Source of the DNA: an uncultured Pseudomonadota bacterium
GTDB lineage: Bacteria; Pseudomonadota; Alphaproteobacteria; Acetobacterales; Acetobacteraceae
Reading direction: 5' to 3'
DNA length: 64,000 bases
Assembly (NCBI GenBank): GCA_963838805.1
Contig: CAWISK010000010.1
Coordinates: 291,335 to 355,334 of the forward strand
In this document: piece after piece, positions 4,114 through 57,190 of the stretch
How positions within the stretch are numbered: position 1 is the first letter of the stretch
Layout of the letters: the number at the start of each line of letters is the position of its first letter
The notes under the pieces: model-generated
Told to the model about the DNA's origin: nothing
What the model saw: only the letters and a program-made list of their open reading frames with translations
Databases searched by the model: none
Translations under genes and position numbers: made by a program

Positions 4114-6966
4114 CTATGCCAGGCCCAGCGCCTGGCGCACCAGCTGGGTTTGTTCCGCCGCGTGCTTGCGCGCAAGCCCCGTGGCCGGACTCGCCGCCTC
4201 CTCGCGCCCGACATAGCGCGGCCGCTTCGCCCGCAAATCCAGGCCGCTCAGCACGTCCTCAATGCGGCGATCGACGAAGCTCCAGGCGCCCATGTTGCGC
4301 GGCTCTTCCTGACACCAGATCACGTCGGCATTCGGATAGTGCGCCAGCACCTTCGGCAGCGACTTGGTGGGGAACGGATAGAGCTGCTCGACGCGCACCA
4401 GCGCCACGTCGTTCACCCCCTGCTCGCGCCGTTCCGCCAGCAGATCGTAGTACACCTTGCCGCTGCACAGCACGACGCGCTTGACCTCGGCACTCGGCTC
4501 GATCGGATCGGTCTCGCCGATCACCGGACGGAACGCGCTGCCAGTCGCGAACTCGGCCAGCGTGGAGACGGCGAGCTTGTGGCGCAGCAGCGATTTCGGC
4601 GTCATCAGCACCAGCGGCTTGCGGAAATTGCGCGCGAGCTGCCGGCGGAGCGCGTGGAAATAGTTGGCGGGCGTGGTCAGGTTCCCAACCACCATGTTGC
4701 GCTCGGCGCAGAGTTGCAGATAGCGCTCCAGCCGCGCGGAGGAGTGCTCCGGCCCCTGCCCCTCGTAGCCGTGCGGCAGCAGCAGCACGAGGCCGGACAT
4801 GCGCAGCCATTTGGTCTCGCCGCTCGCCAGGAACTGATCGATCACCACCTGCGCGCCATTGGCGAAGTCGCCGAACTGTGCTTCCCACAAGACCAGCGTG
4901 CGCGGATCCGCAAGCGTGTAGCCGTATTCGAAGCCCAGCACGCCCTGTTCGGACAGCAGGGAGTTGTAGATCTCGATCTTCGCCTGGTGCGGGGCGATGT
5001 TGTTCAGCGGCACGTATTCGTGCTGCGTCTCCTGATCGACCAGCACGGCATGGCGCTGGCTGAACGTGCCACGCTGCGAATCCTCGCCGGAGAACCGCAC
5101 GCGGTGGCCGTCCAGCAGGAGCGCGCCGAAGGCCAGCGCCTCGCCGGTGGACCAGTCGATGCCCTCGCCGCTCTCGATCATGGTGCGCTTGGCATCGAGC
5201 TGACGGGCGATTTTCGGATTGATGTTGAAGCCGTCCGGCACGGTGGCGAGCGCCGCGCCGATCTCCTTCAGTTGCGCCGGCGCTGCCGCGGTCTCGCCTT
5301 CCTCGTCCTCGCCCGCCTCGGTCGGCTGCTTGATGCCCGACCAGTGACCCTCCAGCCAGTCGGCCTTGTTGACGCGGTAGGATTGCGCACCCTTGTAGGC
5401 GTCATCGAGCGTTTTCGCGAAACCGTCCCACATCGCCTGCGCCTCCGCGGCAGGCAGCACGCCCTCGCGCTCCAGCCGCTCGGCGTACAGCGTGCGCGTG
5501 GTGCGCCGGTCGCGGATGGCGCGGTACATGATCGGCTGCGTGAAAGCCGGCTCGTCGGTCTCGTTATGGCCGTGGCGACGGTAGCAGACGATATCGAGCA
5601 CGATGTCGCAGCCGAAGCGTTGGCGGTACTCCGCCGCCGTACGTGCGCACCACACCACAGCCTCCGGGTCGTCGCCGTTCACGTGCAGGATCGGCACCTG
5701 GATCGCCTTGGCGACATCGGTGCAGTACAGGCCGGAATAGGCGTGCGCCGGAACGGTCGTGAAGCCGATCTGGTTGTTGACGATCAGATGGATCGTGCCG
5801 CCGGTGCGGTAGCCGATGAGCTGGCTCATCGCCAACGTCTCATACACCAGGCCCTGACCCGCGAACGCCGCGTCGCCGTGCATCAGCACGCCCATCACCG
5901 AATGGCGGCCCTGCGTGTCGCCACGCATGTCCTGGCGCGCGCGCACCTTGCCCACCACCACCGGATCGACCGCCTCCAGATGCGACGGGTTCGGCTGCAG
6001 CGACAGGTGGACGGAGCGGCCCTTGATCTCGACATCGGTCGAGGTGCCGAGATGGTATTTCACGTCACCTGAGCCCTGCACGTCGTCGGGCTTGAAGCTC
6101 TCGCCGCCGAACTCGGAAAAGACGGCGGTGAACGGCTTGCGCACGATGTTGACCAGCGTGTTGAGCCGGCCGCGATGCGGCATGCCGATGCAGATCTCGC
6201 GCACGCCGGCCGCAGCCGCCGTGCCGATGATGGCATGCAGCGCCGGGATGCTGCTCTCGCCCCCCTCCAGCCCGAAACGCTTGGTGGTGACGTAGCGCTT
6301 CTGGCAGAACGCCTCGAAGCCTTCGGCCTCTGTCAATTGCCGCAGGATGCATTTCTTCGCCTCGGCATCGAAGGTGCGGCGCCACGGCGCGCCCTCCACG
6401 CGGCGCTGGATCCAGGCCTTCTGCTCGGGATCCTGGATGTGCATGAACTCGACGCCGATCGGCCCGCAATAGGTCTCGCGCAGCACGTCGAGAATCTGGC
6501 GGACCGTGGCGGTCTCCAGCCCCAGCACGTGATCGATGAAGATCTCGCGGTCGTAATCCGCTTCGGTGAAGCCATAGGTGGCGGGGTCCAGCTCGGAGTG
6601 GTGGCGGCGCTCGGCCAGGCCCAACGGGTCGAGCTTCGCCTCCAGATGGCCGCGCACCCGGTAGGCACGGATCAGCATCAGTGCGCGCAGACTGTCCTTG
6701 GTGGCGGCGCGGAGCTGCTCGGCGCTGGGGGCTGCGCGCACGCCGGCCGGCCTCGCCGGCCTCGGCTCGGCCGGGTGATGCGGTGCCCAGGAGGCGCCGG
6801 CAGCGTCGCCCAGCACCGCCCGCGCATCGTCGTCCATCGCCGCGAACAGGTCGGCGAAGCTCGGATCGACACTGTCGGGGTCGTCAACCCACCGTGCGTA
6901 GGTGTCGGCGATGAACGCCGCATTGGCTCCGCTGAACGCGCTGGCTAGGACATCGACGCCGGCCAT
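4114..6966 (-). CDS. sucA: 2-oxoglutarate dehydrogenase E1 component
   Basis: About 950 aa with E1o hallmarks ([38 protein letters not shown]). Start taken at [11 protein letters not shown] (ATG 6964-6966) inside track ORF 4114..7002. Confidence 0.95.
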
Positions 6967-45763: not shown

Positions 45764-46216
45764 TCAGCGACGGAAACCGGGCACCGAATTGCCGCGCGAG
45801 AACATGCATTGCGAAAACGCGATGTTATACTGGTCCTGGATCGATCGCTGGGCATTGGAGCTGGTCGCGGCACCGATCCCCGCCCCACCGAGCGCGCCGC
45901 CCGCGGCACCAATTCCGGCGCCGCTGCCGCCGCCAATCGCGGCCCCCAGCCCGGCACCGAGTGCCGTGGTCACGGCCGCTGCGCCGACGCCGCGCAGATT
46001 GGCGTTCCGCGCCTGGCCGGCGACCGACTGCTCGGCGAACTGCCTGCAAACAGCCTGATCGTTCTGGAACGCGGCAAAGGATTTGTTCGACCCCGGCATG
46101 ACCTGGACGGTCGGGCCCATCGGTGTCTGCGCGCAACCCGCGAGCAGCAACGCCGCAGCACCGATGCCGAGGAAAACCCGATGACGAAAAGAACCACCGC
46201 TCATTGTCGATCCCAT
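45764..46216 (-). CDS. glycine-zipper lipoprotein
   Basis: Lipobox LLLAGC and Gly-zipper GAGLGAAIGGGSGAGIGAAGGALGGAGIGAA. Confidence 0.75.
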   Translation of the reverse strand: MGSTMSGGSFRHRVFLGIGAAALLLAGCAQTPMGPTVQVMPGSNKSFAAFQNDQAVCRQFAEQSVAGQARNANLRGVGAAAVTTALGAGLGAAIGGGSGAGIGAAGGALGGAGIGAATSSNAQRSIQDQYNIAFSQCMFSRGNSVPGFRR

Positions 46217-46368: not shown

Positions 46369-47811
46369 TCACGGGCGGGCCGCGACCGCGAGCGGGCGAG
46401 GCGGATAGTCCTCGAGAAATTTCCGCAGCGGCTCCGAGGTCACCACCGCGTCCTGCCCCGCCTGGATCAGCGCATCCACATCGGCGCGCCTGAGCGTGAG
46501 GCCCGTAGGGATGGCCAGCAATTGGGCCTTGCGCGGGCTTGGCGGCATGGCGGCGAGGGAGATCGGTATCAGCTCGGATTGCACGTCGTCGCATGGCGTG
46601 CCGTCGATCACCCTTCCCTGCGCGCACCGCGCGGCGCGGATCGCCTTCGTGACCTCCTCCAATTGCTGGTTCACGGTGATCATGGTCTCGAAATTGAAGC
46701 GGTCGATCTGCGCGCCCGTCACGAGCCCCAGCATCGCAAACAGGCCACCGACCACCCGGCGCTGCGATACGGTGGGATCCTGCGCGCCCTGGCCATCCAC
46801 CGAGATCACCAGGATCCGGCGCACGCGATCGAAGCCGTCGGTGGCAAGCGTCGCCGGCGATTGCGCCAGATTTTGCATCATGCTGCCGGCCACGCGCATC
46901 GCCATGTTGTCGGAAATGCCGCCATCGGCCAGGTGAAGATAGTGCATCCGCTTGGGATCGAGATAGCGCGACACCGCATTCGCCTGCGCGCCGGGACGGG
47001 AGAGCGGGTCGAGCCGCTGGTCCTCGCTGACGCGGCGCAGCCAGCCGGGTTCGCGGCCGCCGCACTGGCTGGCGCGGTTGGTCAGCGTGATCGGCGAGAA
47101 CAGGCCGGGGAAGCCGTTCGACGCCGCCACCGCGCGCGCCACCGGAAACTCGCCAAGATCGGAGCAGATGAGATCGAAGGTTTCCTGCGTGAAGATGAAC
47201 GGCGTGCCGTCGCTGATCTCGGTGGCGCCGATGGCGACCAGCGGCCGGCCCTGCGCTGCCAGATCCTTGAACCGCGCGCCATGAAACATCGTGCGGTCAT
47301 AGACCCGCTCCATGTAGTCGTTGGTGCCGACCGAGGGATCGACGAGCCACAGCCAGTTCCACGGCAGCAGATAGATCCCCCAGATCGCGGCGTTGGTATC
47401 GCGGTAAAGAAAATCCGTTTCGAACCGGCCGAACGCCGAATCGCGGTAGAGGCCGTAATAGGCGGCCGTGAAGCTGCCCCCCGAGACTCCGGATATGGCG
47501 TCCAGGGCGTGCAGCAGAGGCTCGGGGCCGTGCGGCGTCGGCACGGAAACCTCCCGCATCCCCTTCAGCACGCCATAGGACCAGGCGGCAGAGCGCTTGC
47601 CGCCGCCCGATATGGCGACCAGCACGAGGAGGTCGGGAGTCGCCTTGGCGGTTGACATGGCGGTAAGCCGCATGCCGCCCCGGGAAATGGTCTCGCTGCC
47701 GGGCGGGTTCAGTTGGGTCGGGGACAAGGGTTTCGTGTCGGCGACGATCAGCGACGCGCAACCCGTGAGGAGCACCGCCATCAACAGCACGATCGGCGCC
47801 CGCGACCACAT
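46369..47811 (-). CDS. patatin-like phospholipase family lipoprotein
   Basis: Lipobox VLLTGCAS, oxyanion ISGGGKRS, nucleophile GVSGGS, Asp dyad LADGGISDN. Start ATG 47809-47811 inside track ORF 46369..47964. Confidence 0.85.
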   Translation of the reverse strand: MWSRAPIVLLMAVLLTGCASLIVADTKPLSPTQLNPPGSETISRGGMRLTAMSTAKATPDLLVLVAISGGGKRSAAWSYGVLKGMREVSVPTPHGPEPLLHALDAISGVSGGSFTAAYYGLYRDSAFGRFETDFLYRDTNAAIWGIYLLPWNWLWLVDPSVGTNDYMERVYDRTMFHGARFKDLAAQGRPLVAIGATEISDGTPFIFTQETFDLICSDLGEFPVARAVAASNGFPGLFSPITLTNRASQCGGREPGWLRRVSEDQRLDPLSRPGAQANAVSRYLDPKRMHYLHLADGGISDNMAMRVAGSMMQNLAQSPATLATDGFDRVRRILVISVDGQGAQDPTVSQRRVVGGLFAMLGLVTGAQIDRFNFETMITVNQQLEEVTKAIRAARCAQGRVIDGTPCDDVQSELIPISLAAMPPSPRKAQLLAIPTGLTLRRADVDALIQAGQDAVVTSEPLRKFLEDYPPRPLAVAARP

Positions 47812-48079
47812 CCTGTTCACCTCGGGTGCCCTCCGCGCTGCAAATGGCACGCGCCATTCCGCCAAAACTGGCTGCGCATCCGGAGGGCTGTCAATCTCTG
47901 TGGCCGAGCGGCGCTGCCGCCACGCCGTGTTGCAATCCCCGGTTCTGTTCGTGCGAAGCGGCATCGGCCGCGTCGATCGCCATTGCGGCAGAGAATGTCA
48001 GCGGCGCGATTGGCGTCCGCGAGCGACACCGCACGCCGTTGTCCCGTCAGCCGGGACAGCGCCGTGCGATGCCGGCCGG

Positions 48080-48580
48080 CTAGGACGGCGAAGCCGCATG
48101 GCCGGCGAGTGCTGCCTGCAATGCCTCGTCCTTCGTCTCGTCGAAGGAGGTGTGCATGACCGTGCCCCCGACCCCGTGCAGGGCCGCCAGCACCTTTTCC
48201 GCGGTCATCTTGCGGATCAGCAGGAACAGCCCGGCCGTCCCGGGCGCCAGCGCCTCGGCGGCATTCTTCATGAAATCGTCGCTGATGCCGAAATCGGTCA
48301 GCCGGCCGCTGATCGCTCCCGAGGCGGCACCAACGGCAGCGCCCACCAGCGGATTGAGGAAGATCAGGCCGATCAGCGAACCCCACACAGCCCCCGAGAG
48401 CGCCCCGGATCTCGTCGTATTGACCAACTGATTGAGCCCGACGCGACCGGCCGAATCCTTGGTCGCGATCACCGCGTCGCCGAGTTCGATCAGATACTCC
48501 TTCTGCATCGAGAGCAGCTTGCTGCGGACTTCCTCGGCCTGCTGCTCGGTCGGAAAGGCGATGAAGACGAGATCGCTCAT
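48080..48580 (-). CDS. DUF1269 domain membrane protein
   Basis: MSDLVFIAFPTEQQAEEVRSKLLSMQKEYLIELGDAVIATKD..., followed by a Gly-rich TM pair. Confidence 0.78.
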   Translation of the reverse strand: MSDLVFIAFPTEQQAEEVRSKLLSMQKEYLIELGDAVIATKDSAGRVGLNQLVNTTRSGALSGAVWGSLIGLIFLNPLVGAAVGAASGAISGRLTDFGISDDFMKNAAEALAPGTAGLFLLIRKMTAEKVLAALHGVGGTVMHTSFDETKDEALQAALAGHAASPS

Positions 48581-48668: not shown

Positions 48669-49391
48669 TCACTCCCAGAACGCCGCGACGATCGTGTCGT
48701 CGTCGCCCAGCATGAGGGTCAGGCGATTGGGATTGAGCCTGGCGCCCCGAACGCCGTCGGTCGGCTTGATCACGCGCAGCAGCCTCGGCAGATCCTGCTG
48801 GCGGATACTGCCCTGCTGGCCCGGCTGCGTCGCACCTGCTCCCACCAGCTTCTTGCCGACGCAATCCGCGCAATCGTTCGTGCTGATCGTGGCCTGGCTC
48901 ACGCCCGGGATCTGCTTCACGGTCAGCGCATTCTCGGCGCCGCGGACGCGCACGCCGTTGAATGGATGACCTTCCTCGAGCGCGAACACCGCATCGACCG
49001 GCACGAAGCCTTCTGCGTCCTGTGACAATCTGGGCGGCGCGGCCACGAATTGCAGATCGACGATGCCGTCAGCGGGCTTGCCTGCGTAGCTGGGGACCAG
49101 TTGCGGTGCGCCCCACCCGCCGGAGGCCGCAAGTCCCGTCACGCGGACGATGTCGCGCTTCGGTTCGGCGGAGGTGCGAAAGACCTCGACGCTGGTGACG
49201 TACAGCACCGGCCGGTCCGCCGCGGGCGACAGCTCGGGTGCCGCCAGTTCGCCCAGCGCCTCCTGTCCGCCCGGCATCTCCTGTCCCATCGGACCGGGCG
49301 AGGCAGCACTGCCCTGGGCCGATGCGAGGCCGCACAGGCCCAGTTGCACCGTGGCGCCGATCGCGAATGCCGCCAATACTCGGAACGTCAT
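48669..49391 (-). CDS. secreted hypothetical protein with peptidase-inhibitor-I78-like C-terminus
   Basis: Signal peptide MTFRVLAAFAIGATVQLGLCGLASAQG. The tail LRVIKPTDGVRGARLNPNRLTLMLGDDDTIVAAFWE resembles the I78 family (inference). Lies 28 nt downstream of the rSAM gene. Confidence 0.6.
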   Translation of the reverse strand: MTFRVLAAFAIGATVQLGLCGLASAQGSAASPGPMGQEMPGGQEALGELAAPELSPAADRPVLYVTSVEVFRTSAEPKRDIVRVTGLAASGGWGAPQLVPSYAGKPADGIVDLQFVAAPPRLSQDAEGFVPVDAVFALEEGHPFNGVRVRGAENALTVKQIPGVSQATISTNDCADCVGKKLVGAGATQPGQQGSIRQQDLPRLLRVIKPTDGVRGARLNPNRLTLMLGDDDTIVAAFWE

Positions 49392-49419
49392 GCTCGTCCT
49401 CCCTCCGGATCGACGGGTC

Positions 49420-50583
49420 TCACCCGTACAGGCGTGTCTCGACAGGTTGGCCTGGCATCGGCAGGCGTTCCGGCACCCGCTCGATCGCGTCGAGCACCAG
49501 ATCGGTTCCGCGCATCTTGACCAGCCGGCAATAGCGCGTCTCGGTGCTGGCGAAGCTGCCGTTCTCCGCCAGCTTGTTGACCGGCTCGCCGCCGCCGCAG
49601 ACGCTGAAATACTCGCAGGTCTCGCGACACATCGCGACCCCCGCGCGAATGTCGCGCAGCATCCGCGCAAGGGGCGCGCTGTCCTGCATCTCCAGCAGCG
49701 TGTCGCGGTTGATGTTGCCCAGCACGAAATCGCCGTATTCCGCGTTCTTCAGCCCGAGCAGTTCCGGCGAAAACGTCGAGACGTTTCCCGCCCAGTCCAT
49801 GCTGGTCAAGGCGAACGGCTCGACCAGTTGATTGGCGAACGCCGCATCGTTCGGCCGCACGATCTGCCGGATCGCGTGCTCGATCTCGCGGATGAAGGTG
49901 ATCCTGCCGGGAGAGGCCGCCGAGAGCCGCCAGAACTCGCGCAGGAAACTGGAATACGCCGCCTCGATATCGGCCGCCGCGAAGGATCGCGAGACGTGGC
50001 TGCCTTCGGATTCCTCGACGTTGAAGCAGACTTCCTCGATCCCTTCCTCGACATAGAAATCGAACATCTCGCCCGGACACGCCATGCTGGCGGCGGTCAG
50101 GACGGAAATGACATGAAACGGCACCCCGCTGCGCCGCAACTGGCGGATACCGGCGATCGTCCGGTCGAACGTGCCGCGGCCGGAGCGCGTGACACGGCTG
50201 CGGTCATGCACATGCCGCGGGCCATCGATGCTGACGCCGACATTCACCTGCTCCTCGGCGAAGAACGCGCACCATGCCTCGTCGATCAGCGTGCCGTTGG
50301 TCTGGAACGCATGGTCGATCGCAACGTGGGACGGCTTCAGCCGTTCGATGGTTCGAAACGCCTCTCGGTAGAACGCGACCGGCAGCACCATCGGCTCGCC
50401 CGCATGCCAGACGACGGAAAGCCCGTCCTGCACCCAGCCGGACGCGAAGACCTGCGAGAACAGATTGATCAGCGTCCCGGTCGAGATGACCGCTTTCTCG
50501 TTCCGGTTCGGCAGATAGCAGTATGTGCAATCGATGTTGCAGAACGGAGTGGGCTGGACCACCAGCAACTCGATCCTGGGCAT
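49420..50583 (-). CDS. radical SAM/SPASM peptide maturase, GrrM/three-residue-cyclophane-forming type
   Basis: 387 aa from MPRIELLVVQPTPFCNIDCTYCYL (CxxxCxxC). C-terminal SPASM CRETCEYFSVCGGGEPVNKLAENGSFASTETRYC. The upstream part of track ORF 49420..50985 is an out-of-frame overlap of the peptide gene. Confidence 0.85.
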   Translation of the reverse strand: MPRIELLVVQPTPFCNIDCTYCYLPNRNEKAVISTGTLINLFSQVFASGWVQDGLSVVWHAGEPMVLPVAFYREAFRTIERLKPSHVAIDHAFQTNGTLIDEAWCAFFAEEQVNVGVSIDGPRHVHDRSRVTRSGRGTFDRTIAGIRQLRRSGVPFHVISVLTAASMACPGEMFDFYVEEGIEEVCFNVEESEGSHVSRSFAAADIEAAYSSFLREFWRLSAASPGRITFIREIEHAIRQIVRPNDAAFANQLVEPFALTSMDWAGNVSTFSPELLGLKNAEYGDFVLGNINRDTLLEMQDSAPLARMLRDIRAGVAMCRETCEYFSVCGGGEPVNKLAENGSFASTETRYCRLVKMRGTDLVLDAIERVPERLPMPGQPVETRLYG

Positions 50584-50620
50584 GGCGCGGCTCAGTATCC
50601 GCCGAGACCGGGCGTATCCG

Positions 50621-50992
50621 TCACCAGTTGCGCCAGGCGTTGCGCCAGTTGTTCCAGCGGGGCCGGAAGTTGCGCCAGTTGTTCCACGCGGGCCGGCCCC
50701 AGCCGGGCCGCCCACCCCAGCCCCAGTTGTTCCACCGGTTGCCCCAGACCAGATGCAGGTCGGGATTGGGCTGCCGCGCCAGGTCGTCGGGCACGACCAC
50801 GACGGACACCGCTTCGCGGATGGCGGCCAACCGCTCCGACACGCCCGGCGCTGTGCTGGCCGGTGGGTCGATTGGGGCGGGGCGGTCGATCGCCGCCCTG
50901 GCGACGGCGGAGCCGAGCAGCATCGCCGCGCCGACCGCTCCCGCCGGGACCAGCCGCGACATGATGGCGAGGTATCTTTGCCCAAGCCGCAT
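50621..50992 (-). CDS. Trp/Asn/Arg-repeat RiPP precursor peptide (GrrA-like) with Sec-type signal peptide
   Basis: GGGGAG about 8 nt before ATG 50992. The C-terminus is VWGNRWNNWGWGGRPGWGRPAWNNWRNFRPRWNNWRNAWRNW. The stop lies 37 nt from the rSAM start. Confidence 0.8.
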   Translation of the reverse strand: MRLGQRYLAIMSRLVPAGAVGAAMLLGSAVARAAIDRPAPIDPPASTAPGVSERLAAIREAVSVVVVPDDLARQPNPDLHLVWGNRWNNWGWGGRPGWGRPAWNNWRNFRPRWNNWRNAWRNW

Positions 50993-51094
50993 AGGAACTG
51001 CTCCCCGTCGCTGCCCGGACCCGAAATTCGCAGCGTGGCACCCGGACTGTCAACCGGATCGTGAGGGGAGCGTGAAAGATCAGTGGGTTAGGAC

Positions 51095-51185
51095 TGGCGG
51101 ATGGAGTGGGATTCGAACCCACGGTACGCTATTAACGTACACACGCTTTCCAAGCGTGCGCCTTAAGCCGCTCGGCCATCCATCC
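51095..51185 (-). tRNA. tRNA-Ser (anticodon GGA)
   Basis: The reverse complement folds as acceptor GGATGGA/TCCATCC, anticodon stem CACGC/GCGTG with loop TTGGAAA, a long variable arm, T-arm GTGGG-TTCGAAT-CCCAC, discriminator G and encoded CCA. Confidence 0.92.
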
Positions 51186-51220
51186 TCTGCCGCCCTTTTT
51201 AGCAAGGCGTCGGCGGGCCG

Positions 51221-53028
51221 TCACGCATCCATCTTCAGCGCCGCGAGGAAGGCGCTTTGCGGGATCTCGACCTTGCCGAACTGGCGCATCCGCTTCTTGC
51301 CCTCCTTCTGCTTCTCCAGCAGCTTGCGCTTGCGGGTGATGTCGCCGCCGTAGCATTTGGCGGTGACATCCTTGGACAGCGCGCTGATGGTCTCGCGCGC
51401 GATCACCCGCCCGCCGATCGCCGCCTGGATGGCGATCTTGAAGAGCTGCTTCGGGATCAGCTCCTTCAGCTTCGCACAGATCGAGCGGCCGCGCGCGTCG
51501 GCGGCGCTGCGGTGGGCGATGAACGAGAGCGCGTCCACCGGATCGTGGTTGACCAGGATCGAGATGCGCACGAGATCGCTCTCGGCATAGCCGTCCATCG
51601 CGTAGTCGAAGCTCGCATAGCCGCGGCTCACCGATTTCAGCCGGTCGTAGAAATCGAACACCACCTCGTTCAGCGGCAGGCGATACACCGCCATCGCCCG
51701 GTTGCCGACATAGGTCAGATCCGCCTGCTGCCCGCGCCGCTCGTTGCATAGGGTCAGAACCGCGCCGAGATATTCGTCGGGCACCATGATCGTGGCCTTG
51801 ATCCACGGCTCCTCGATATGGTCGATCACGCTGCCGTCCGGCATGTCGGCCGGGTTGTGCAACTCCTCCATCGTGCCGTTGGTGCGGTGGACGCGATAGA
51901 CGACGCTGGGGGCGGTCGCGATCAGGTCGAGGTCGAACTCGCGCGCTCAGGCGTTCCTGGATGATTTCCAGGTGCAGCAGCCCGAGGAAGCCGCAGCGAT
52001 AGCCGAAACCGAGGGCCGCCGATGTTTCCGCCTCGTAGTGGAACGAGGAATCGTTCAGCCGCAGTTTCGCCAGGCTGTCGCGCAGCTTCTCGAAATCGTC
52101 GGCATCGACCGGGAACAGGCCGCACCACACCACGGGCACCGAGGGCTTGAAGCCGGGCAGCGGCGCCGCGGCAGGATGACGGTCGTCGGTGATCGTATCG
52201 CCCACGTTGCAGTCGGCCACGGTCTTGATGGCGGCCGTGATGTAGCCGATCTCGCCCGGCCCCAGATCGTCCAGCGGCACCAGGCGCGGGGTGAACACGC
52301 CTACCTGTTCGACGCTGTGAACGGCCCCCGTGCTCATCATGCGGATCTTCTGGCCTCGCCTGATGCGGCCGTCCTTGACGCGCAGCAGGATGACAACGCC
52401 GAGATACTGGTCGTACCAGCTATCGACCAGCAGCGCGGTGAGCGGCGCTGCTCTCGTCACCCTTGGGCGGCGGCAGGCGGGTGACGAGCGCTTCCAGCAC
52501 GCCCTCGATATTGAGCCCGGTCTTGGCGCTGATCTCCACCGCATCGGAAGCATCGAGGCCGATCACGTCCTCGATCTGCTGGCGGACGCGCTCGGGCTCG
52601 GCGGCCGGCAGGTCGATCTTGTTGAGCACCGGGACGATTTCGTGATTGGCGTCGATCGCCTGATACACATTGGCGAGCGTCTGCGCCTCGACGCCCTGGG
52701 AGGCATCGACCACCAGCAGCGAGCCTTCGCAGGCAGCCAGGCTGCGCGAGACCTCGTAGGCGAAATCGACATGGCCGGGCGTGTCCATCAGGTTCAGGAC
52801 ATAGATCTCGCCGTCCTGCGCCGGATAGGCGAGGCGCACCGTCTGCGCCTTGATGGTGATGCCGCGCTCGCGCTCCAGCTCCATGTTGTCGAGCACCTGC
52901 TCGGTCATGTCGCGCGCGGCGACCGCACCCGTGGCCTGGATCAGCCGGTCGGCGAGCGTGGACTTGCCGTGGTCGATATGGGCGATGATCGCGAAGTTGC
53001 GGATGCGAGAGAGGGGGGTGGCGGTCAT
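51221..53028 (-). pseudogene. lepA: translation elongation factor 4 (LepA), two 1-nt insertions near 52453 and 51945
   Basis: G domain [16 protein letters not shown]...DTPGHVDF...NKIDL in track ORF 52420..53028. Domain II/III ...[14 protein letters not shown]...[15 protein letters not shown] in ORF 51132..52553. C-terminal ...[11 protein letters not shown]...[15 protein letters not shown] in ORF 51221..51871. Confidence 0.92.
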
Positions 53029-53649: not shown

Positions 53650-56120
53650 TCACCGTAGGGTGCCGCCGGTAGCCTTGCCCACCGCCGCCACGACCTTCGC
53701 GCAGGCGGCCTCGATCTCCGCGTCGGTCAGCGTCCGCTCGCGCGGCTGGAACGTCACCTCGACACCGAGCGATTTCTGTCCCGCCGGCACCTTCTCGCCC
53801 TCATAGGCATCGAACAGCAGCACGCCGGCCACCAGCGCGCGGTCGGTACCGCGAGCGGCACGCAGCACCATCTCGGCCGGCACGTCGCGCGCCACCAGAA
53901 ACGCGAAATCGCGGCGCACCGGCTGGAACGCCGGCAGGTCCGGGGGTGCCCGGCGCCGGCGCTTCGGCTCGGCGATAGCGGCCAGGAAGACCTGCATCGC
54001 CACCACCGGCCCGGTCAGGTCGAGGGCGGCCAGCACGCGCGGATGCAGCTCGCCGAAAATTGCCAGCACCATCTTCGGTCCCTGGCGGATGACCCCCGAG
54101 CGGCCGGGATGGTAGTAAGCCGGGCGCGTCGGCCGTCGTGGACAGCGCCTCGCATCGGCACGCCGAGCGCCGCGAGCACCGAGCCAGCGCGTCGCCGCGT
54201 GCGTCCATCGCGTCGACCGCACGGGCAGGTGCGATCCAGCTGCGCGGCGTCTGCCCGGCACGCAGACTGGCCGCCACATGCGCCTGCCCCACCGCGTCCG
54301 TGCCGACAAAGGCCGGGCCGATTTCGAACAGGCCGATATCGGCGAAGCCGCGCGCGGCATTGCGCGCGGCGGCCAGCGCCAGGGTGGCGATCGGCGTCGG
54401 GCGCAACTGATCCAGATCGGCGGCGATCGGGTTCTCCAGGGTCAGCGCCGGATCGCCGCCGCCGAACAGCACCGCCTGCCCGCGCGCCATGAAGCTGAAG
54501 GTGACGCATTCGGCCAGACCCGCCGCCGCCAGCGTGCGCCGCGCCAGCGCCGCGCGACCCTGGCGCGGCACCAGGCTCGGCGCCGGCACTGGCGCCAGCA
54601 CGGGCATCGAGGCCGGCGGGATGCGGTCGAGGCCATGCAGGCGCAGCACCTCCTCGATCAGGTCCATCTCCGGCTCGGCCTCGAGACGTCCCTCCGCGGC
54701 AACGGCAGCCTGGCGCGGTTCCAGGGACGCCGCCGGGTCGAGATCGCTGATTCCGGCGACGTCGTTGCGCCAGGCCGGCACCTCGACCGTCACCGCCGCC
54801 GCGTCCCGCGCCACGACACCGAACCCCAGGCCCTCCAGCGAGGCCAAAGCCGCCTCGGGTGCGATCTCCACACCCCCCAGCCCGGCAAGCCGGGAGAAGC
54901 GCAGCGTCGCGCGCCGCTGCCAGGCGGGTTCGGCGCCGGCCGACACCAATTCGCTCGCCTCGCCGCCGCACAGATCCTGGATCATGCGCGTCGCCGCCTC
55001 GATCGCGTCCGGCAGGAACGACGGGTCGATGCCGCGCTCGTTGCGCTGGCGGGCATCCGAGGTGATCTGGTGCCGCCGCCCGGTCAGCGCCACCCGCACC
55101 GGGTCGAACAGGGCACATTCCACGAAGACGCTCGTGGTCGCCTCGGTGCAGCCGGTCGCCACCCCGCCGATCACCCCTGCCAGCGACTGCACGCCGGCGG
55201 CGTCGGCGATGACGCAATCCTCCGGCGAGACCGTGTACGACTTGCCGTTCAGTGCCGCGAGGCTCTCGCCCGCGCCCGGGCGCAATGTCAGCGCCCCGCC
55301 TGCGATGCGCGCCGCGTCGAACACATGCAGAGGACGGCACAAATCGATGGTGAAGAAGTTGGTCACATCGACCAGCGCGTTGATGGGCCGCAGGCCGATC
55401 GACAGCAGCCGGTCGGCCAGCCAGCGCGGGCTCGGCCCGTTGCGCAGGCCGCGAATGGTGCGGCCCAGAACCCATGTGCAGGCCTCCGGCATGTCGTTGA
55501 CCCAGCGCACCGGGCTGGCAAAGCGGCCCGGCACCGGATCGGCCCGCCACGGCTTCAGCCGGCCGATGCCGGCCGCTGCGAGGTCGCGCGCCACGCCACG
55601 CACGCCCAGCGCGTCGCCGCGATTGGGCGTCACCGCGATCTCGATCACCGGATCATCGAGACCGGCCCAGGCCGCGTAAGCCGCACCGACCGGCGCGTCG
55701 TTCGGGCAGTTCGACGATGCCGGTGTGGTCCTCGCCCAGCGCCATCTCGCGATAGCTGAGCAGCATTCCCGCACTCTGCACGCCGCGAATCTCGCCCACC
55801 TTCAGCGTGATCCCGGTGCCCGGGATGTACGCGCCGGGTGCCGCGAACACCGCCTTCATGCCGGTGCGCGCGTTGGGCGCGCCGCAGACCACCGAGACCA
55901 GCGTGCCGTCGCCCGCATCGACGCGGCAGGCGCGCAGCCGGTCGGCGTTCGGGTGCGGCACCGCCTCGACCACGCGGGCGATGCGGAACGGTGCGAGTGG
56001 GGCACCGCGATCCTCGACGCCCTCCACCTCCAGCCCGATGGCGCTCAGCGTGTCGGTGATGCCCGCCAGATCGGCGTCGGTATCGAGATGCGAGCGCAGC
56101 CAGGAGAGCGAGAACTTCAT
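53650..56120 (-). pseudogene. pheT: phenylalanine--tRNA ligase beta subunit (at least 4 indels near 55705, 54181, 54152 and 54120)
   Basis: The N-terminal tRNA-binding domain MKFSLSWLRSHLD... is in track ORF 55653..56120. The B3/4-B5 core is in ORF 53801..55774. VLAALGVPM is readable only in a third frame. The C-terminal AYYHPGRSGVIRQGPKMVLAIFGELHP...FDAYEGEKVPAGQKSL is in ORF 53650..54360. Confidence 0.92.
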
Positions 56121-56121
56121 C

Positions 56122-57190
56122 TCACAGCCCCTCGTGCAAGATCGCCGGCGCCAGCGGGCTCGATCCGTAATGGCGCAGCCAGCGTATGTCGCTCTCGTAG
56201 AACGGGCGCAGGTCGGGGATGCCGTGCTTCAGCATCGTCACCCGCTCGACACCCATGCCGAAGGCGAAGCCCTGCCACTCGCGCGGATCGATGCCGCAAT
56301 TGGCGAGCACTTTCGGATGCACCATGCCGCTGCCGAGAATCTCCAGCCAGTCACCGCCGCCCCCAAGTTCGCCGGTGCGTCGGTTCCAGCCGATATCCAC
56401 TTCCATCGACGGCTCGGTGAACGGGAAATAGGACGAGCGGAAGCGCACCGGCAGCGTGGCTGATGCCGAAGAAGGCGCGCAGGAAATCGATCAGGCAGCC
56501 TTTCAGGTGCGCCAGCGTGATGTTCCGGTCGATCGCGATGCCCTCGCATTGATGGAACATCGGGCTGTGCGTGGCGTCGTGGTCGGCGCGGTAGGTGCGG
56601 CCGGGTGCGATCACGCGCAGCGGCGGCGGGTTTTCCAGCATGGAGATGATCTGCACGTCCGAGGTCTGCGTCCGCAGCAGCAGCGGCCGGCCGTCGCGCG
56701 TGCCGGGCATGTAGAACGTGTCGTGATCGGCGCGCGCCGGGTGGTGTGCCGGGATGTTCAGCGCGGCGAAGTTGAACCAGTCGGTCTGCACGTCCAGGCC
56801 CTCGCCCACCGTGAAGCCCATCGCGCCGAAGATCGCCGCCATCTCCTCCATCGTGCGGCTGATCGGGTGGATCAGGCCGGCCGGCGCCGGGCGCGGCGGC
56901 AGGGTCATGTCCAGGCGCTCGGCGGCGAGCCGCGCCTCGAGCGCCGCCGCTTCCAGCGCCACACGGCGGGTTTCGATGGCCTGTTCCAGCTCGGCCTTGA
57001 GCCGGTTGAGCGCCGCACCCCGCTCGCGCCGCTCCTCGGGCGAGGCACGGCCGAGTTCCTTGAGCAGCGTGGTCAGGCGGCCCGACTTGCCCAGCACGGA
57101 GACGCGCACCGCGTCCCACGCGCGCAGATCGGCCGCACCCGCCAGGGCCGCGTCGGTGTCCGCCCGCAAGGCGGCGAGGTCGTCGGTCAT
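56122..57190 (-). pseudogene. pheS: phenylalanine--tRNA ligase alpha subunit (1-nt insertion near 56458)
   Basis: N-terminal and motif 1/2 region ...HPISRTMEEM...FRTQTS-like LLRTQTSDVQ...RADHDATHSPMFHQCEG is in track ORF 56351..57190. Motif 3 [17 protein letters not shown]...[11 protein letters not shown] is in ORF 56122..56448. Confidence 0.93.

Follow-up and report, generated by a model that had tools for sequence, protein, structure and literature searches.

A three-gene cassette with a GrrM/OscB-type radical SAM enzyme and a glycine-poor W-x-N precursor in an uncultured alphaproteobacterium

We analysed a stretch of 64,000 nucleotides (the window) from an uncultured bacterium of the Acetobacteraceae (Pseudomonadota; GenBank assembly GCA_963838805.1, contig CAWISK010000010.1, positions 291,335 to 355,334 of the forward strand), and identified on its minus strand what sequence comparison resolves into a three-gene cassette (48669-50992): a precursor with a tail rich in Trp and Asn, a radical S-adenosylmethionine (SAM) enzyme of the GrrM/OscB type, and a putative secreted accessory protein. 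The precursor is a real gene homologous to GrrA, the Trp and Asn residues of its core are conserved, the enzyme belongs to the GrrM/OscB family, and the linkage of the three genes is itself conserved. We consider it probable that together they form a system in which GrrM/OscB-type stapling of a W-x-N precursor is combined with Sec export and a secreted partner; in proposing this we infer the chemistry and the ring count, how the product is exported, what the third protein does and what the biological activity is. The features of the cassette are listed in Table 1.

Over the whole length of the NCBIfam GrrM model TIGR04261 (model positions 1-363 of 363), the enzyme scored 423.6 bits against a cutoff of 310 (E 6.3e-127), and it also matched Pfam Radical_SAM (E 2.5e-15); the GrrM profile check proposed in a preliminary description of this DNA was therefore passed. 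This profile evidence places the enzyme in a known family that has been characterised biochemically, and whose representative OscB (IPR026357) forms C-C links between Trp C7 and the C-beta of Asn or Asp, and between Phe C4 and Asn C-beta, in an i,i+2 arrangement that yields three-residue cyclophanes (PMC11002830). By its title, a study cited in PMC11851443 reportedly shows that OscB accepts diverse Gly-rich precursors. The CX3CX2C motif lies at C15, C19 and C22 and is conserved in 24 of 25 aligned relatives; because it begins at residue 15, there is no N-terminal RiPP (ribosomally synthesised and post-translationally modified peptide) recognition element domain. Beyond the SAM cluster, the only Cys residues conserved among the 25 aligned clade enzymes are C105, C319, C323, C329 and C352. 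The Pfam SPASM match is weak (E 0.1) with no CX9-15GX4C motif, the position of the 'GGC' of anaerobic sulfatase maturases (anSME) reads 'GGE', and no Cys occupies the positions that we take to be the ligands of anSME auxiliary cluster I. This partial SPASM set is no argument against GrrM/OscB membership, since it is shared by the whole clade, including the enzymes associated with TIGR04260 precursors; judging by these residues, the clade may carry one auxiliary cluster rather than two.

In NCBIfam, no further named maturase model reached its cutoff, YhhB, DarE, FxsB and XyeB included. The second-best family was AmcB of the AmcA/AmcB pair (NF041721, NF041718), which aligned at full length with 308.8 bits but remained under its cutoff of 425; one precursor homologue gave a faint AmcA match (E 0.033), whereas the window precursor gave none. 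Two other assignments were tried and rejected: a darobactin or dynobactin maturase (DarE, NF038005, 100.6 against 650 bits; DynA, NF041298, 159.9 against 450 bits), and an anaerobic sulfatase maturase (TIGR03942, NF010308 and NF010321, with 168.2 against 349.45, 120.3 against 484 and 91.1 against 441 bits). Placement in the anSME clade, which the preliminary description had raised as a possible objection to its own proposal, was thus not found.

This comparison bears on a different explanation of the locus, in which the Trp-rich open reading frame (ORF) encodes an unmodified secreted protein and the enzyme acts elsewhere, for example on the product of the third gene or on a sulfatase. The enzyme does resemble anSME at about 168 bits: both have the radical SAM core and, from the SPASM region, the CX2-3CX5C stretch. 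By sequence, anSME (PDB 4K36-4K39; E 6e-21) is its closest solved structure, with the triceptide synthase ChlB also among the closest; nothing in this similarity is specific. However, the anSME models lie far under their cutoffs (168 against 349 and 120 against 484 bits) whilst that of GrrM/OscB is exceeded, no sulfatase gene lies near the enzyme, and the enzyme is tied to W-x-N-rich ORFs in its relatives. Across 80 loci encoding such relatives (L001-L080), most of them from soil alphaproteobacterial metagenome-assembled genomes (MAGs) labelled Stellaceae, Acetobacteraceae or Reyranella, a W-x-N-rich ORF lies upstream of the enzyme in 67, some of which lack the third gene. We therefore regard an unmodified Trp-rich protein as highly improbable.

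The same count answers the question of whether the precursor ORF is missing from relatives that keep the enzyme, a point on which the preliminary description had made its proposal depend. In the window, a precursor with seven W-x-N units adjoins the enzyme, with 37 nt between its stop codon (50623-50621) and the enzyme ATG at 50583, which is the arrangement expected of, and shared with, GrrA/GrrM (OscA/OscB; TIGR04260/TIGR04261) systems. This gap and the GGGGAG Shine-Dalgarno sequence, both described previously, were read directly from the DNA. The translated sequence is exactly as first quoted, with all 11 Trp of the 123 residues confined to the C-terminal 42, and the tail indeed holds three WNNW units (starting at aa 87, 103 and 113) and three WRN units (aa 106, 116 and 120). 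The first copy of the underlying DNA repeat is located precisely as had been claimed, whilst the second is offset by one base from the 50669-50685 originally given; no match of the TTGCGCCAGTTGTTCCA type occurred in 100 shuffles.

Translated in six frames, the window yields 724 stop-free segments of at least 42 aa; of these, the precursor alone reaches 11 Trp in 42 residues, the runner-up having 9, and it alone contains more than one W-x-N unit. The Trp-rich ORF is not a chance product of GC-rich sequence. It has at least 200 clusters of homologues, and its differences from seven relatives fall at codon positions 1, 2 and 3 in the numbers 209, 139 and 378, with about as many synonymous as non-synonymous codon changes; this third-position bias and the balance of codon changes indicate purifying selection on the frame. 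The precursor is therefore a real, conserved gene, although each of its 120 closest homologues is either unnamed or labelled 'hypothetical'. Long ORFs of up to 604 aa also cover the cassette (49150-50964 and 50523-51353 on the plus strand, 50592-51122 on the minus strand). These are the usual spurious ORFs of DNA with 65-70% GC, and the codon-position statistics back the annotated precursor frame. No second copy of the cassette was found in the 64-kb window.

Table 1 Features of the three-gene cassette in the window.
Feature	Position	Strand	Description and basis
Precursor gene, GrrA-like Gly-poor 'WNNW/WRNW' subtype	50621..50992	-	123 aa; ORF and translation, homologues, hhalign, substitution bias
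Signal-peptide-like N-terminus, aa 1-34	50891..50992	-	MRLGQRYLAIMSRLVPAGAVGAAMLLGSAVARAA; putative Sec signal
Conserved leader helix, aa 50-63	50804..50845	-	GVSERLAAIREAVS; putative radical SAM enzyme recognition element
Core, aa 81-123	50624..50752	-	11 Trp, 10 Asn, 8 Arg, no acidic residue; C-terminus WRNW
17-nt DNA repeat	50640-50656 and 50670-50686		TTGCGCCAGTTGTTCCA, two exact copies; encodes the duplicated WNNWRN
Shine-Dalgarno-like GGGGAG	51001..51006	-	8 nt 5' of the precursor ATG at 50992; read from sequence
GrrM/OscB-family radical SAM cyclophane synthase (predicted)	49420..50583	-	387 aa; TIGR04261 and Pfam Radical_SAM
Conserved third gene	48669..49391	-	240-aa protein, predicted to be secreted; directly 3' of the radical SAM gene
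Shine-Dalgarno sequence of the third gene	49398..49406	-	GGAGGGAGG; 6 nt before the third-gene ATG; read from sequence

The window precursor matched no NCBIfam or Pfam model, and the GrrA check suggested in the preliminary description (TIGR04260, cutoff 31 bits) returned nothing even at E<=10. As curated models gave no match, we placed the precursor via intermediates and profile-profile comparison. An hhalign comparison of the WNNW-type alignment with that of TIGR04260-positive proteins gave a probability of 99.7% (E 1.3e-25) over 125 columns, spanning the N-terminal segment, the leader helix and the core. TIGR04260-positive relatives score 80.7 (L039), 48.1 (L046) and 33.4 bits (L043), and 36 of the 120 closest homologues match this model at E<=10, most of them under its cutoff. 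The upstream ORFs of the 80 loci form a graded series, from WNNWRNW-type cores to the classic Gly-rich cores of the type WGNGGWHNGG, and in some loci a Gly-rich and a WNNW-type precursor stand in tandem before a single radical SAM gene (L082, L083-86). Taken together, the graded series, the profile-profile homology and the tandem precursors identify the window precursor as a diverged GrrA. At the sequence level it is a Gly-poor, Arg-rich sister group of GrrA/OscA1, which fails the model cutoff and the Gly-rich repeat yet is clearly homologous over the hydrophobic N-terminus, the R-L-x-A-I-R leader helix and the W-x-N core.

This homology, the TIGR04261 match and the agreement of W-x-N with the reported Trp-Asn(i+2) link of OscB all support the triceptide (GrrA/GrrM) class to which the preliminary description had assigned the system. 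Its picture of a largely cyanobacterial family needs revision, since soil Alphaproteobacteria, for example Stellaceae and Reyranella, are rich in members. The novelty of a Trp-saturated WNNWRN core had likewise been overstated: W-x-N units with few or no intervening Gly also occur in Bradyrhizobium, Afipia, Bordetella and Alsobacter loci, and the Trp content is about the same as that of classic Gly-rich members (~25-29%). Genuine differences from GrrA/OscA1 nevertheless exist. The window precursor mostly lacks Gly-Gly spacers between its W-x-N units (15% Gly in the core, against 21-44% in TIGR04260-positive relatives), has Arg rather than His or Gly as the common middle or flanking residue, carries a net charge of +8 in its core, and escapes TIGR04260; furthermore, the alphaproteobacterial clade is accompanied by a conserved third gene for a predicted secreted protein.

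Several related loci display variations in precursor content. In the tandem arrangements (2370-2747 and 2860-3228 in L082; 2843-3187 and 3296-3700 in L083), one precursor is Gly-rich (WRNGGWRNGG...) and the other of the WNNW type, and the radical SAM and third genes follow. L054 and L058, both on CAVYZU010000004.1, are two complete cassettes about 230 kb apart in one genome, with differing precursor cores. In Scytonema hofmanni UTEX 2349 (L064, 4737-4958), a 73-aa ORF directly upstream of a 40%-identical radical SAM gene has the same leader motif (LNDRIAAIRAKA) and a core of three TTMVYPFHSSP repeats, which may represent a different aromatic-x-x substrate for this enzyme clade. Bradyrhizobium and Afipia MAGs (L055, 4632-4913; L056, 4600-4911) encode His-rich W-x-N cores ending in HHH (HWHNWPNWNNWHDHWNNWHNHHWGNHHH), which hints at metal binding, and neither locus has the third gene. 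The L009 precursor (4131-4967) contains about eleven consecutive WNN units (…WNNWRNWNNWNNWNNWNN…WWRNW), pointing to repeat expansion within the family.

The seven W-x-N units of the core do not overlap and start at aa 83, 87, 103, 106, 113, 116 and 120; most of them follow one another directly or with one to three non-Gly residues in between. In six of these units (aa 83, 87, 103, 106, 116 and 120), 113-120 of 120 homologues retain W(i) and 110-120 retain N(i+2), whilst the middle residue varies (N, F, R or G at aa 88; N or G at aa 104; N, R, P or H at aa 117), and the protein ends in WRNW in 110 of the 120. Triplets outside the W-x-N pattern (WGW, WGG, WGR and FRP) show much lower conservation at i+2, the Arg of WGR being retained in 63 of the 120. 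Conservation of W(i) and N(i+2) around a variable middle residue fits OscB chemistry, and six or seven Trp-Asn cyclophanes are therefore expected by analogy. Several would lie side by side, and together they would shift the mass by about -12 to -14 Da.

This expectation replaces the roughly ten overlapping candidate crosslink sites of the preliminary description with seven non-overlapping canonical units. Nor is the core unusually dense, as had been supposed: seven W-x-N units in 41 residues compare with 8-13 units, and 11-16 Trp, in 43-69 residues of Gly-rich relatives, and WNNW-type precursors average 11 Trp and 6.7 W/F-x-N units in ~38 residues.

In principle, the enzyme and precursor could be as proposed and the crosslink still be something other than Trp C7-Asn C-beta: attachment through a different indole carbon, a Trp-Arg link at WGR or spanning WRN, a Trp-O-Trp ether like that of darobactin, or an i,i+3 link spanning WNNW. 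The W-N-W motif of darobactin resembles the W-N-x-W of the precursor, and the enzyme is distantly similar to both DynA (159.9 bits) and DarE (100.6 bits). Moreover, XncB links Trp C6 to the C-beta of Arg or Asn (PMC11002830), and WprB links Trp C5 to Arg C-gamma (PMC11851443). Against this, DynA, DarE, XyeB and YhhB all score far under their cutoffs (450, 650, 450 and 445 bits) whilst the GrrM/OscB cutoff is surpassed, and conservation singles out W(i) and N(i+2) rather than the WGR Arg (63/120). We consider a different crosslink unlikely, and retain Trp-Asn(i+2) linkage as the working prediction. Overall likeness to the darobactin and dynobactin systems lies in a related enzyme superfamily, in cores that contain Trp and Asn, and in i,i+2 crosslinks, predicted in the case of the window precursor; a C-terminal aromatic residue is a further shared trait. 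Darobactin and dynobactin cores comprise 7-9 residues, bear ether and C-C links, and have dedicated transporters. The window core, in contrast, has 43 residues and seven repeats with no transporter, and the enzyme falls short of both DarE and DynA, as given above.

Outside the core, conservation in the precursor is highest in VSERLAAIREA, where V51, R54, L55, A57, I58, R59 and A61 are invariant or nearly so. The preliminary description had seen here a spacer of about 50 residues, rich in Pro and Ala. The spacer does measure 46 aa with 8 Pro and 7 Ala, but it is more than a spacer, as this most conserved leader element lies inside it. R-[LI]-x-A-I-R recurs in distant precursors with unrelated cores, such as the Scytonema ORF of L064, and this recurrence despite quite different cores makes the helix the likely element recognised by the radical SAM enzyme.

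The N-terminus of the precursor resembles a Sec signal by simple rules, as previously suggested: a net positive n-region and a moderately hydrophobic stretch of ~17 residues are followed by A-R-A just before position 34. This segment aligns with the N-terminus of TIGR04260-positive proteins, and because it falls inside the TIGR04260 model footprint in relatives, the signal-like segment is a family feature. An alternative that concerns the export step only holds that the hydrophobic segment is a membrane anchor or a part of the leader recognised by the enzyme or another partner, leaving the product cytoplasmic or membrane-tethered. For a signal peptide, its conservation is unusual (P16, G18, G21, L25, L26 and G27, in both the WNNW-type and Gly-rich subfamilies); it also has a G-x-x-G pattern, and radical SAM modification can only occur in the cytoplasm. 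Its hydrophobicity is moderate, however (11-residue Kyte-Doolittle mean of ~1.2-1.75), the ~17-residue stretch ends in small-x-small before Pro-rich sequence, like cleavable signals, the sole conserved partner is itself predicted to be secreted, and no other export or cleavage genes are conserved at related loci. We consider such retention at the membrane or in the cytoplasm doubtful, although less so than a different crosslink, and continue with export via Sec.

The partner protein is encoded by a third gene, which the preliminary description had passed over. It starts 28 nt past the stop codon of the enzyme gene. In 56 of the 80 loci, with both WNNW-type and Gly-rich cassettes among them, it comes directly after the enzyme gene and on its strand; reverse look-ups from two of its homologues always returned precursor, radical SAM and third genes in that order. 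In L083-86, the radical SAM and third genes overlap by 4 nt. The protein appears to be built from a signal peptide (Sec-like by simple rules), a linker of low complexity, a domain rich in beta structure and, at the C-terminus, a domain with a CxxC pair. Its family comprises at least 1309 homologue clusters, none of which is functionally named (a few are 'hypothetical protein') or has a Pfam domain, and the protein itself matched no NCBIfam model, no Pfam model at E<=10 and no PDB sequence. In the triceptide literature that could be consulted, we found no discussion of either the precursor's Sec-type signal or this conserved secreted partner.

Of two AlphaFold2 models of the third protein, the first was poor (predicted local distance difference test, pLDDT, 54.5) and the second, covering residues 59-240, was better (pLDDT 81.2; predicted template modelling score 0.72). 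The beta-rich domain of the model matched no PDB structure, and neither model had a Foldseek match at E<=0.001. In both models, the top local match of the C-terminal domain was the fungal elastase inhibitor AFUEI (3w0d_A), followed by CI-2; the AFUEI match is weak (prob 0.99-1.00, root-mean-square deviation 1.4-1.6, 36-38 columns, E 0.11-0.14). With E of ~0.1 over 36-38 columns, the resemblance to I78/potato inhibitor I proteins is a lead rather than an assignment, and the C-terminal domain may, on these models, be inhibitor-like.

We propose the following sequence of events. The 123-aa precursor would be made in the cytoplasm, where the enzyme would recognise its leader helix VSERLAAIREA. SAM-derived 5'-deoxyadenosyl radicals would then join the Trp indole (at C7, by analogy with OscB) to the C-beta of Asn at i+2, giving three-residue cyclophanes, each with a loss of 2 Da, at W83, W87, W103, W106, W116 and W120, and perhaps W113. 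The stapled protein would be exported via Sec by its signal-like N-terminal segment, and would meet the co-encoded secreted protein in the periplasm or outside the cell; beyond the cytoplasm, the third protein would act on the peptide or together with it. Stapling in the cytoplasm and subsequent export via Sec is the simplest reading, because no protease or transporter is conserved among the neighbours of the cassette, either in the window or at the related loci.

The spacings of 37 and 28 nt, together with strong Shine-Dalgarno sequences, are consistent with one operon; a regulatory hairpin between precursor and enzyme is unsupported (z = -0.69). Conservation across the 80 loci does not extend to the flanking genes (lepA, DUF1269, patatin-like and others). 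A DUF1269/glycine-zipper membrane protein (48080-48580, minus strand) lies 88 nt downstream of the third gene, and is probably outside the cassette, since it follows the cassette in only 3 of the 80 loci. Further on are a patatin-like phospholipase (46369-47964) and a second, lipoprotein-like glycine-zipper ORF (45764-46216, minus strand). On the other side, a tRNA-Ser(GGA) gene (51095-51185, minus strand) separates lepA from the precursor and lies ~100 nt 5' of the precursor ATG; its adjacency to the cassette is not conserved in 40 related loci. This lack of conservation and an unremarkable GC content led us to reject a genomic island. Beyond the tRNA, three essential genes on the minus strand are split: lepA into three pieces (51221-53028), pheT into three (53650-56120) and pheS into two (56122-57190). 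The pieces carry consecutive Pfam domains of the same protein, and their frameshifts are probably indel errors of long-read assembly rather than marks of pseudogenes.

A number of observations weigh against the proposed system. The same frameshifts in neighbouring genes leave some room for errors of one base within the cassette, although each of its three genes does align with homologues at full length. Promoter and terminator scans around the cassette gave no more matches than shuffled sequence. The precursor has no match among curated models, its core contains less Gly (15%) than TIGR04260-positive relatives do (21-44%), and its N-terminal segment is conserved to a degree that is unusual for a signal peptide and could mean another role. 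Finally, C7 regiochemistry and tolerance of directly adjacent rings are extrapolations from OscB, whose identity to the window enzyme is probably just ~40%, the value for the cyanobacterial relative at L064.

The nature of the final product invites a more tentative suggestion. The Trp/Arg-rich core and its charge suggest, from composition, interaction with a membrane or the envelope, and the WRNW-COOH end recalls what we take to be the C-terminal signals of outer-membrane proteins and could target the envelope machinery. It is conceivable, though in our view rather unlikely, that the product is a Sec-exported protein of ~9 kDa with a cationic Trp/Arg tail stapled by adjacent cyclophanes, rather than a small leader-cleaved RiPP, and that it has an envelope function with a dedicated secreted partner of new fold. 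Were this so, the cassette would represent a three-component envelope system that is widespread in soil Rhodospirillales-like Alphaproteobacteria and has been overlooked in triceptide work, a possibility that we advance with equal caution.

If confirmed, the proposed stapling would extend the substrate range of GrrM/OscB enzymes, which would then cover not only W-x-N repeats spaced by Gly but also units that abut directly within an Arg-rich core; the engineering of stapled peptides could draw on this. Attention would also be drawn to a large, unannotated set of precursors overlooked by the curated GrrA model. With a Sec-type signal and a predicted secreted protein as the only conserved companions, these precursors may serve an envelope or extracellular role.

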